Positions 24,447 through 26,572 of a stretch of 38,615 nucleotides of DNA are shown here, in pieces. The position numbers and the translations under genes were made by a program. The notes beneath the pieces were generated by a model. That model saw only the letters and a program-made list of their open reading frames with translations. It was not told the DNA's origin and searched no databases. Each line of letters begins with the position of its first letter. The stretch's first letter is position 1. The DNA comes from a virus, in the UHGV virus genome UHGV-0210052. One strand, 5' to 3'.

Positions 24447-24919
24447 ACCTCAATCTCTCTGACCGTTCCGCCTGCTTCTTTGAATTTTGCAATCAGGCTG
24501 TCAGCCTTATGCTCGAACTGACCATAACCAGCGCCCGGCAGTGAAGCCCAGATATTACTGCAACGGTCGATAGCCTGACGAATATCACCGCGATCAATCA
24601 TCGGTAAAGCGCCACGCTCTTTAATCTGTTGCAGTGCCACAGCGTCCTGGCTTTTCGGAGAGAAGTCTTTCAGGCCAAGCTGCTTACGATAGGCATCCCA
24701 CCAACGGGAAAGAAGCTGATAGCGCCCGGCTGCTGTTGATTTGAGTTTTGGGTTTAGCGTGACAAGTTTGCGAGGGTGATCTGAGTAATCAGTGAATAGC
24801 TCTCCGCCTACAATGACGTCATAACCATGATTTCTGGTTTTCTGTCGTCCGTTATCAGTTCCCTCTGACCACGCCAGCATATCGAGGAACGCCTTACGTT
24901 GATTATTGATTTCCACCAT
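24443..24919 (-). CDS. R: lambda R-type lytic transglycosylase (endolysin), 158 aa
   Basis: Sequence from [34 protein letters not shown] matches lambda R almost exactly as recalled. Confidence 0.9.
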
Positions 24920-25226
24920 CTTCTACTCCGGCTTTTTTAGCAGCGAAGCGTTTGATAAGCGAACCAATCGAGTCAGTACCGATGTAGCCGATAAACACGC
25001 TCGTTATATAAGCGAGATTGCTACTTAGTCCGGCGAAGTCGAGAAGGTCACGAATGAACCAGGCGATAATGGCGCACATCGTTGCGTCGATTACTGTTTT
25101 TGTAAACGCACCGCCATTATATCTGCCGCGAAGGTACGCCATTGCAAACGCAAGGATTGCCCCGATGCCTTGTTCCTTTGCCGCGAGAATGGCGGCTAAC
25201 AGGTCATGTTTTTCTGGCATCTTCAT
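24903..25226 (-). CDS. S: lambda S-type holin/antiholin, 107 aa
   Basis: [10 protein letters not shown] dual-start motif and three TM segments; matches lambda S as recalled. Confidence 0.9.
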
Positions 25227-25471
25227 GTCTTACCCCCAATAAGGGGATTTGCTCTATTTAATTAGGAATAAGGTCGATTACTGATAGAACAAATCCAGGC
25301 TACTGTGTTTAGTAATCAGATTTGTTCGTGACCGATATGCACGGGCAAAACGGCAGGAGGTTGTTAGCGCGACCTCCTGCCACCCGCTTTCACGAAGATC
25401 ATGTGTAGAAGGCAGCAGCGTAACTATCACTGATGAATTCAGGATAGCCAGTGGCTACGGCTCAGTTTGGG

Positions 25472-25598
25472 TTGTGGCGGCCGGAATCGAACCGGCTTCC
25501 ATCGGTGCGCTGCCGATTGCAGTACGCGCGGCGGTCAGCTACATGACTAGTATTTTCACTGTCGCCTATCTGCTAGCTCGCCATTGAGCTTCACCACA
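25472..25598 (-). other. tRNA-like element (T-arm plus acceptor stem) with oversized central region
   Basis: On - strand GCCGG-TTCGATT-CCGGC T-arm, 7 bp acceptor-like pairing (TGTGGTG/CGCCACA) and GCTC...GAGC D-stem, but about 127 nt total. Confidence 0.3.
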
Positions 25599-25674
25599 AC
25601 GATAAGAGCACTGCGCGGCACCTTTCACCAATTCCGCGAGGTCTGCGGGTTCAATGCTCTTACCTGTTGCACAG

Positions 25675-25737
25675 ATATAAAAAATCCCGAAACCGTTATG
25701 CAGGCTCTAACTATTACCTGCGAACTGTTTCGGGATT
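25675..25737 (-). terminator. tR' (late 6S RNA terminator)
   Basis: On - strand AATCCCGAAAC...GTTTCGGGATTTTTTAT, same as the lambda tR' hairpin as recalled. Confidence 0.7.
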
Positions 25738-25877: not shown

Positions 25878-25906
25878 AATTTACCCAACTTTATTCAAAA
25901 AGTCAA
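25878..25906 (-). promoter_or_regulatory. late promoter PR' (with qut region downstream)
   Basis: On - strand TTGACT, 17 bp spacer, TAAATT immediately after Q stop, matching lambda PR' architecture. Confidence 0.65.
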
Positions 25907-25948: not shown

Positions 25949-26572
25949 CTAACGTGTGACCGCGTTCAAAATGTTGTCTGCGATTGACTCTTCCTTGTGG
26001 CATTGCACCACCAGAGCGTCATACAGCGGCTTAACAGTTCGTGACCAGGTGGGTTGGGTAAGGTTGGGGATTAGCATCGTTACAGCGCGATATGCGGCGC
26101 TTGCTGGCATCCTAGAATAGCCGACGCCTTTGCATCTTCCGCACTCTTTCTCGACAACTCTCCCCCACTGCTCTGTTTTGGCAATATCAACGGCCCGGCC
26201 AGTACCGTGGCAATCTCTGCATCTTGCGCCCGGTGTCGCGGCACTACGGCAATAATCCGCATAAGCGAATGTTGCGAGCACTTGCAGTACCTTCGCCTTA
26301 GTATTTCCTTCGAGCTTTGCCACACCACGGTATTTCCCCGATACCTTGTGTGCAAATTGCATCAGATAGTTGATAGCCTTTTGTTTGTCGTTCTGGCTGA
26401 GTTCGTGCTTACCACAGAATGCAGCCATTCCGAATCCGGCTTGTGATTGCGCCATCCCCATGGCAGCCATCACATCAGTACCGGAAAGAGAGTCAGAAGC
26501 CGTGGCCCGTGGTGAGTCGCTCATCATCGGGCTTTTTGGCGAATGAAATTTAGCTACGCTTTCGAGTCTCAT
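25949..26572 (-). CDS. Q: late antiterminator Q, lambda type, 207 aa
   Basis: Matches lambda Q as recalled, including CRDCHGTGR...CGRCKGVG zinc motif. Confidence 0.9.
   Translation of the reverse strand: MRLESVAKFHSPKSPMMSDSPRATASDSLSGTDVMAAMGMAQSQAGFGMAAFCGKHELSQNDKQKAINYLMQFAHKVSGKYRGVAKLEGNTKAKVLQVLATFAYADYCRSAATPGARCRDCHGTGRAVDIAKTEQWGRVVEKECGRCKGVGYSRMPASAAYRAVTMLIPNLTQPTWSRTVKPLYDALVVQCHKEESIADNILNAVTR

Follow-up and report, generated by a model that had tools for sequence, protein, structure and literature searches.

Introduction

What is encoded by a sequence that carries the parts of a tRNA but is too long to be one? The question is raised by the virus genome UHGV-0210052, a stretch of 38,615 nucleotides (nt) termed the window here. 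On its minus strand, at positions 25598-25472, it carries such an element within a late leader of the phage lambda type. Late leaders of lambdoid phages carry tRNA genes between Q/tR' and the lysis genes (PMC8022706), and the Q-to-holin interval is also a hotspot for the prophage small RNAs (sRNAs) Pas, AgvB, AsxR and STnc100 (10.64898/2026.05.13.724894). The latter are different, terminator-type Hfq sRNAs and were rejected as candidates for the element. A first, sequence-only reading of the locus had proposed acceptor, D-stem and T-arm pairings, all of which are present on the minus strand, and had left it open whether they belong to a degenerate or insertion-disrupted tRNA or to a tRNA-derived structured RNA. 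The evidence presented here favours the tRNA-derived structured RNA. The fold of the element is upheld by covariation and the element is selectively maintained. That it is an intact tRNA-derived RNA gene which also acts by the mechanism proposed in the Discussion is a joint reading that we put forward tentatively, at slightly below an even chance.

Results

A tRNA core with one extra arm

The element has the hallmarks of a tRNA in its 7-base-pair (bp) acceptor stem, its 5-bp T stem with a GTTCRANYC-type loop and its GG-containing D loop (Table 1). Rather than a four-arm cloverleaf of 72-95 nt, it forms an over-length structure of five arms, with 127 nt in the window and 127-135 nt across homologues. 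Core dimensions are canonical for tRNA everywhere except for one discrete inserted arm. In the acceptor stem TGTGGTG (25598-25592) pairs with CGCCACA (25479-25473), including one G.U pair. Two outer pairs (from 25600 and 25599) form in the window and in most variants and are broken in the types designated L037, L023 and L033, which leaves 7 bp, the length found in tRNA, as the universal acceptor stem. The would-be discriminator base is the A at 25472. The D arm is composed of GCTC (25589-25586), AATGGC and GAGC (25579-25576), with G18-G19 retained in its loop, and the T arm of GCCGG (25496-25492), TTCGATT and CCGGC (25484-25480).

The extra arm is built from a 5-bp basal stem, a conserved internal loop AUA / GCGCGUA, an upper stem of approximately 9 bp and a 20-nt apical loop. 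The anticodon-like arm that follows it presents GCG as 'anticodon' and has A33 and C37. The sequence-only reading had overlooked the anticodon-like arm and the 4-nt variable loop, the discreteness of the 57-nt arm and a 13-bp helix upstream of the element. Open reading frames overlapping the element are short and without support. The apical loop (25539-25559, minus strand) does read GUG AAA AUA CUA GUC AUG UAG, that is six codons and a stop, in several loop types but not in all, and its flanking GUGAA and (A)GUAG could alternatively make a loop-E or sarcin-ricin-like motif.

Compensatory change upholds the fold

The fold model was tested on 34 diverse copies and comprised 9 bp in the acceptor stem, 4 in the D stem, 5 and 9 in stems 1 and 2 of the extra arm, 5 in the anticodon-like hairpin, 5 in the T stem and 3 pairs in a palindrome of the apical loop. 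Standard pairs occupy 92.3% of pair cells compared with 32-47% when partners are slid, and half of the pairs (20/40) show compensatory change, values reached by 0 of 500 shuffles. The compensatory pairs are distributed over the acceptor stem (5), arm stem 1 (3/5), arm stem 2 (7/9), the T stem (3/5) and the palindrome (2/3). RNAalifold, to which the model was not supplied, returned matching helices except for some mid pairs of arm stem 2, and a 205-nt stretch folds with z = -2.8, none of 200 shuffles folding as well. While the stems vary, the unpaired segments are near-invariant, namely the D loop, the T loop, AUA/GCGCGUA, the CAGCGCA loop and GGAA. Most copies were found with a pattern that fixes the anticodon-like hairpin; the set derived by BLAST is small but agrees. 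A pseudoknot was considered on the grounds that GCGC occurs both in CAGCGCA of the hairpin loop and in GCGCGUA of the internal loop; the few variants (G to U in the loop; G to A and U to C in the internal loop) do not covary.

These data also bear on the options left by the sequence-only reading. The inserted arm is itself conserved and covarying, loops and junctions are near-invariant between highly dissimilar phages and no arm-less form was found among the 2.9 million viral contigs of IMG/VR, which speaks against a degenerate or insertion-disrupted tRNA. Fortuitous pairing, which that reading had named as its own refutation, is contradicted by the conservation of the unit in unrelated phages and by covariation beyond that of shuffles.

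The apical loop carries a covarying palindrome

Among the matches listed, all 128 of 128 copies carry a self-complementary hexamer in the apical loop, in six versions: ACUAGU (70), UCUAGA (21), UCUGGA (18), UCGCGA (13), GCUAGC (5) and ACCGGU (1). The outer pair is A-U, U-A or G-C and the central pair U-A, G-C, C-G or U.G, such that 100% of cells are paired. A loop hexamer kept self-complementary by compensatory change is the feature that characterises a dimerisation initiation site (DIS). As the hexamer cannot fold on itself and no other segment covaries with it, a loop-loop (kissing) homodimer is the simplest reading, and the palindrome suggests such a dimer. The presence of U.G in UCUGGA points to pairing at the RNA rather than the DNA level. 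Pairing of the loop CUAG with the invariant junction GAGCUAG was considered and rejected, given that the junction is unchanged where the loop has CGCG or CCGG. The window type has a nearest-neighbour self-duplex energy of -5.8 kcal/mol, one end of a range that extends to -13.4 kcal/mol.

The element recurs in unrelated genomic contexts

A 141-nt query identified 92 phage records, each covered to at least 80% and with 73-100% identity. The element is present in 175 of 5426 complete E. coli genomes, on chromosomes only and always at full length, and it also occurs on three plasmids. A scan of one genome per species found it in Enterobacteriaceae only (Klebsiella, Enterobacter, Superficieibacter), besides one contig of a metagenome-assembled genome (MAG) and one chance match. 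The MAG contig (L130; JAUVQU010000080.1, Cellvibrionaceae, 9.7 kb) is identical to the lambda-like leader of the window including the element; E. coli phage or vector sequence has probably contaminated the MAG bin. In IMG/VR the pattern scan yielded at least 57 distinct sequences among at least 128 viral and prophage copies, all full length. Pooled with the other copies, these represent at least 34 flank contexts across at least 133 instances.

Four kinds of context recur. The element lies in lambdoid Q-to-lysis leaders, as in the window; between nutL and the N gene of P22-like and lambda-like phages; in virulent Salmonella siphophages (Skatevirus, Akiravirus and relatives), where real tRNAs lie beside it and the neighbouring genes are encoded on the other strand; and in Pantoea phage PdC23. 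Orientation with the downstream genes is constant in the lambdoid operon leaders only, the Skatevirus-type virulent phages carrying the element on the opposite strand. In the virulent phages it is placed between a promoter-like site and a tRNA-Met with terminator, or ahead of tRNA-Ile and tRNA-Arg(UCU). In two of these loci (L003, 2734-2892; L008, 2733-2809) the element heads a small RNA unit continued by tRNA-Ile (aat as called) and tRNA-Arg(tct), or by tRNA-Met. The Akira unit has a promoter-like site at 2222-2250 and a bidirectional terminator at 2815-2835.

Recognition by tRNA-finding programs

Deletion of the 57-nt arm in silico is sufficient for ARAGORN at default settings to call tRNA-Arg(gcg), both for the window sequence and for one diverged homologue; deletion of the anticodon-like hairpin instead yields no call. 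An identical 127 nt in one RefSeq E. coli chromosome, located between a Q-family antiterminator gene and a holin gene, was labelled tRNA-Arg by PGAP. The tRNA relationship suggested by the sequence-only reading is thereby borne out. Within Rfam, only the tmRNA model aligns at E <= 10, to the T arm and acceptor 3' strand, with 20.2 bits against a gathering score of 47. Public annotation of the element is inconsistent where it exists, and mostly there is none: it has been entered as 'tRNA-Arg', as a 58-nt 'tRNA-Ser' covering the 3' half only, as 'polyubiquitin-A' and as hypothetical proteins (ON470589/ON470594, PQ186186, OP745621, NZ_CP060061).

U33, a purine at 37 and U8 are near-universal in tRNAs. 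All aligned copies of the element have A8 and the loop C-A-G-C-G-C-A. Scans of IMG/VR for other bases at loop positions '35' and '36' found none; these dedicated scans covered the two positions only, and the retrieval pattern itself fixed positions 33 and 35-38. Two other assignments of the arms were rejected. A class-II reading, in which the long arm is the anticodon arm and the hairpin the variable arm, leaves ARAGORN empty once the hairpin is deleted and places candidate anticodon positions in a covarying stem or at variable sites. In the intron mode of ARAGORN, only inconsistent low-threshold calls are obtained.

A reusable frame surrounds the element

The helix upstream of the acceptor stem, here termed P-1, is also maintained by compensatory change. 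Over 14 sequence types, whose strands were excerpted by hand and connected through an artificial linker for the count, 91% of its cells are paired (38-51% with slid partners) and compensatory change is seen in 7 of the 13 pairs. The pairing persists in four versions of P-1 that differ widely in sequence. We define as a frame a 13-15-bp P-1 helix abutting a 7-9-bp closing stem, GTTGTGGTG...CACCACAAC, around a variable cargo, an arrangement found in the window and throughout the family. Scanning IMG/VR for the P-1 5' strand (ACAACAGGTAAGAGCATT) gave a pooled total of at least 160 instances in at least 68 clusters of differing downstream sequence, and in most clusters the GTTGTGGTG...CACCACAAC stem encloses a cargo of 40-390 nt. 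Cargoes include the window element, the lambda interior, genuine tRNAs (Arg-UCU, Gly-CCC) and other types. The element has its place in a reusable frame with many cargoes. In a relative, tRNA-Arg(UCU) fills the same frame, and one phage carries the element in its N leader together with a different cargo in a late-leader frame that is identical to that of the window up to GTTGTGGTGAA.

Several observations were made on the frame and its other cargoes. Across the IMG/VR loci L136-L240, at least 60 different cargoes occupy the frame ACAACAGGTAAGAGCATT...CAGTGCTCTTTCC-GTTGTGGTG[cargo]CACCACAAC, with tandem arrays in L146, L236 and L240. Hairpins resembling a T arm, such as GCAGAG TTCGATT CTCTGC, are frequent in the variable region of P-1. 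A 125-nt cargo in L237 (3972-4096) passes the Rfam tRNA gathering threshold (44.5 bits) despite an insert of about 57 nt and a 4-nt 'anticodon' loop. A frequent cargo, GAAUGCGCAGGCUGAUGCGC...GCCGGAGAUCAGCACCGGC (L151, L157, L186, L211, L217, L190 and others), has a D-like loop GCUGAU complementary to a T-like AUCAGC; the two loops seem to change together (GUCGAU with UUCGAC in L190). This cargo type is hypervariable in its middle domain and has no match in Rfam. In L194 (2710-2786, minus strand) an Rfam isrJ sRNA (60 bits) lies immediately upstream of the frame motif and may be the short pR'-tR' leader transcript of that prophage.

The acceptor 5' strand GUUGUG (25595-25600) has two possible partners, an upstream CACAAC (25665-25670) and a 3' CACAAC (25471-25476). 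Pairing with the upstream partner would lengthen P-1 to about 20 bp and leave an A bulged. In N-leader copies GCUUUGG likewise has an upstream partner, CCAAAG, besides its trailer partner. The alternative pairing of GUUGUG may represent a folding switch, a folding chaperone or a recombination footprint.

The late leader of the window and the leaders of lambda

The window is near-identical to lambda from the end of Q through the tR'-type stretch and again from 25478 to the start of S, with approximately 174 nt between that differ. The sequence-only reading had described the flanks as those of the lambda late leader, which the alignment confirms almost base for base. It had also placed the element between tR' and the holin gene at a tRNA slot, and related phages do have real tRNAs there. 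Intact open reading frames correspond to Q (25949-26572) and to S, R and Rz (24903-25226 and leftwards). The record of lambda annotates only Q, orf-64, S and R; we take the promoter at 25878-25906 to be pR' and the hairpin at 25679-25737 to be tR'. The terminator scan did not list 25679-25737. Between the element and S there is a second terminator-like hairpin (25347-25381, minus strand), GGCAGGAGG...CCUCCUGCC with GUUUU after it, which is identical in lambda.

The lambda late leader has the same P-1 helix and spacer but an unrelated 67-nt interior. Its stem GUUGUGCUG...CAGCACAAC differs from the acceptor stem of the window by a compensatory pair, and a covariance model of the element finds nothing in lambda at E <= 10. 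P-1 itself, of 13-15 bp with a variable apical insert, directly follows tR' in the window and in lambda (L134, ~645-720); it is not known to have an assigned function there.

An equivalent exchange is found in the early leader. The N-leader copies of the element have the basal stem of the lambda pL-leader hairpin that lies between nutL and N, and in L010 lambda pL, nutL and N are present with only the hairpin interior swapped for the tRNA-like body, the flanks being identical. Comparison of lambda (L135, 35000-35800) with L010 and L006 places the same swap in some lambda-like and P22-like phages. The lambda hairpin is the RNase III site that modulates N translation by relieving N-mediated repression. 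A tRNA-like body in this position predicts control of N translation by RNase P rather than RNase III.

Table 1. Features of the element and its leader in the window
Feature	Positions	Strand	Remarks
pR'-type late promoter TTGACT-17-TAAATT	25878-25906	-	From promoter scan; near-identical to lambda
tR'-type terminator hairpin and U-run	25679-25737	-	Identical to lambda in alignment
P-1 5' strand GGUAAGAGCAUUG	25652-25664	-	Pairs with 25613-25601; 11 Watson-Crick and 2 G.U pairs; in minimum-free-energy fold
P-1 variable apical region	25614-25651	-	38 nt here, 28-150 nt elsewhere
P-1 3' strand CAGUGCUCUUAUC	25601-25613	-	Directly abuts acceptor stem
Acceptor 5' strand	25592-25600	-	7-bp core UGUGGUG (25598-25592) universal
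A8-A9, D arm and U26	25575-25591	-	Near-invariant in all copies
Extra 57-nt arm, exactly between tRNA positions 26 and 27 (D/anticodon hinge)	25518-25574	-	Both stems covary
Self-complementary hexamer ACUAGU in apical loop of extra arm	25546-25551	-	Candidate kissing-loop dimerisation site
Anticodon-like arm AUCGG / CAGCGCA / CCGAU, 5 bp / 7 nt	25501-25517	-	Stem invariant; read as gcg by ARAGORN
4-nt variable loop GGAA and T arm	25480-25500	-	T stem covaries, 100% paired
Acceptor 3' strand, CGCCACA core and AC	25471-25479	-	CCAAAC next

Discussion

Our results provide a model for how a tRNA-derived RNA could be produced and act during phage development. In the window prophage the element probably lacks a promoter of its own and would be made only when Q-modified polymerase passes tR'; such Q-dependent read-through would make it a lytic-phase RNA. 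Its top half, consisting of the 12-bp acceptor/T stack and the D/T elbow, would let host tRNA enzymes excise it from the late transcript, with RNase P forming the 5' end, trimming of the 3' end and possibly an RNase III cut in P-1. Processing by these two enzymes is suggested by the 12-bp stack and by the homology of the basal stem of the N-leader copies (class 2) with the lambda N-leader hairpin. Excision would stabilise a species of about 130 nt, two copies of which could pair via the palindromic loop into a symmetric dimer. This RNA may act in trans, mimicking a tRNA or serving as a decoy towards a factor that recognises an anticodon stem-loop of the tRNA-Arg kind, rather than as a decoder. 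As a side effect, excision would sever the leader from the mRNA of the lysis genes.

A number of points weigh against an intact tRNA-derived gene working in this manner. ARAGORN finds no gene in the window and at gathering thresholds Rfam 15 gives no match to the element; the check by covariance models that the sequence-only reading had asked for was thus formally negative, although it is a poor test for an element of this kind. No conserved encoded CCA end and no conserved discriminator base are present in the aligned copies. The invariance of the hairpin stem is partly a matter of ascertainment because the retrieval pattern fixes the hairpin. Pairing within P-1 takes up the whole 5' leader as far as the acceptor stem, an uncommon arrangement in substrates of RNase P, and the hexamer of the window is weak as a simple duplex (-5.8 kcal/mol). 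Transcription, excision, dimerisation and action in trans are all inferred steps. To these is added a rival that we regard as rather unlikely but of real weight, in which the tRNA-like fold and P-1 are a cis-acting leader element, serving only as a processing, folding or insulation signal. They would cut the nut/qut-proximal leader from the mRNA or set the 5' end or stability of the mRNA, and the released RNA would be functionless. Such a role fits the many phages that swap exactly the interior of the lambda N-leader hairpin and keep GCUUUGG.GGUGUG.../...CACACC.A.CCAAAGC, 15-45 nt before the N ribosome-binding site, the lambda hairpin being an established RNase III site that relieves N-mediated repression. 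It is also consistent with the copy in the window, which replaces the interior of the lambda late-leader hairpin on the same stem with compensatory changes, and with a frame that tolerates dozens of unrelated cargoes. However, processing needs the acceptor/T stack only, so the near-invariant D, internal and anticodon-like loops and the maintained palindrome are left unexplained at 73-100% identity. Furthermore, the virulent Salmonella phages carry an RNA-only unit by tRNAs on the opposite strand, where there is no downstream mRNA to regulate.

Decoding by a tRNA-Arg(GCG), with the arm tolerated like an oversized class-II variable arm or removed by splicing or by cleavage and ligation, has the ARAGORN and PGAP calls on its side, as well as the invariance of C35 and G36 in IMG/VR and the fact that the element is allelic with a true tRNA-Arg(UCU) and adjoins real tRNAs. 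It is nevertheless very unlikely. A33, C37 and A8 are joined by the lack of a Levitt-type 15-48 pair and of a conserved CCA end or discriminator base. We know of no bacterial mechanism that would remove an insert at tRNA position 26/27, and the conserved palindrome has no role in decoding. GCG would read CGC and CGU, abundant codons for which host supply is ample and needs no addition, while phages usually carry tRNAs for rare codons. A function confined to DNA, with the inverted repeats as recombination 'boundary sequences' or as targets of homing endonucleases, would be in keeping with cargo swaps precisely at GTTGTGGTGAA / CACCACAAC, with the 'boundary sequence' annotated in this interval of CUS-3 and with HNH/homing endonuclease genes near several loci. 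It accounts for the frame but not for covariation of five internal helices; G.U-compatible changes (UCUGGA, T.G pairs) are sensible only as RNA and in lambdoid loci the element is oriented with transcription. We therefore consider it highly improbable. Hardly any credence is left for the remaining two explanations. A decaying pseudo-tRNA with a random insertion would agree with the failure of standard tRNA finders and with the non-canonical anticodon loop, but its insertion would not be conserved and covarying, IMG/VR has no uninterrupted version, and full-length copies are found in many unrelated genomes. Equally implausible is a miniature tmRNA-like molecule with the apical loop as a short tag frame. 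Its best Rfam match is indeed the tRNA-like domain of tmRNA, and an in-frame stop closes the six-codon frame in several loop types; however, that match is limited to T arm and acceptor at 20.2 bits against 47, ARAGORN finds no tmRNA in its tmRNA mode (-m), and the 3:70 pair is U-A and not the G.U needed for charging with alanine. Moreover, types L093 and L023 have the six-codon frame interrupted, and changes that preserve the palindrome are non-conservative in the peptide.

Given the variety of cargoes, a wider role may be entertained. Enterobacterial phages may possess modular RNA cassettes in which P-1 and the CACAAC/GUUGUG acceptor-like stem form a tRNA 'top half', a scaffold for processing and stability that presents exchangeable payloads, sometimes in tandem, within antitermination-controlled leaders. 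The payload of the window would then dimerise through the covarying kissing loop and mimic tRNA-Arg, for example to decoy a host defence or toxin that is directed at tRNAs. We consider this generalisation possible but doubtful. The leaders of lambda rank with the most thoroughly studied RNAs in biology, yet its close relatives exchange a structured RNA of tRNA shape into the hairpin that governs N translation as well as into the late leader, and leader processing is predicted to pass from RNase III to RNase P as a result. The covariation of the palindrome is indicative of a small tRNA mimic that dimerises in nature, and the multi-cargo frame suggests a use of tRNA scaffolds by phages for the expression of diverse small RNAs. 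This bears on the conflict of phage and host over tRNAs, on genome annotation and on RNA engineering.

Rfam 15 has no model of the element, and searches of the accessible literature with sequence strings and keywords found no description of it. The closest systems in location are the phage tRNA genes ileZ-argN-argO of 933W and the Asn, Leu and Thr tRNAs of phage L and Sf6, which occupy the same niche and have the same acceptor, D and T architecture. The element differs from these in its 57-nt arm at 26/27, in A8, A33 and C37 and in being undetected by ARAGORN and the Rfam tRNA model. The stretch of the 933W tRNA region that was read has no P-1 motif or frame, and argN bears no resemblance to the element by eye. 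The tRNA-like domain of tmRNA likewise places an acceptor/T-arm 'top half' on a body that is not a tRNA; unlike tmRNA, the element is without G3.U70, pseudoknots or a credible tag frame and scores below gathering. In YrlA, a bacterial Y-RNA-like RNA, the TMERs of MHV68 and the mascRNA of MALAT1, a tRNA mimic module provides processing or stability and another module is functional. The element may be likened to these fusions and to the engineered 'tRNA scaffold', of which it would be a natural counterpart. In contrast to YrlA, the TMERs and mascRNA, its payload branches from the hinge and its ends form a true acceptor stem; it has no Rfam or sequence relation to them, and no Ro/Rsr context was seen. 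The RNase III hairpin of the lambda N leader shares with the element homologues exactly its basal stem, around an unrelated interior. ROOL and GOLLD are self-assembling phage-associated RNAs of 500-800 nt (PMC12286853). Like them the element is phage-borne and found beside tRNA genes, at only about 130 nt and with a predicted dimer. The nearest parallel to the dimer is the HIV-1 DIS, where a 6-nt loop palindrome likewise varies yet stays self-complementary, set in a loop of 9 nt compared with 20 nt in the element.

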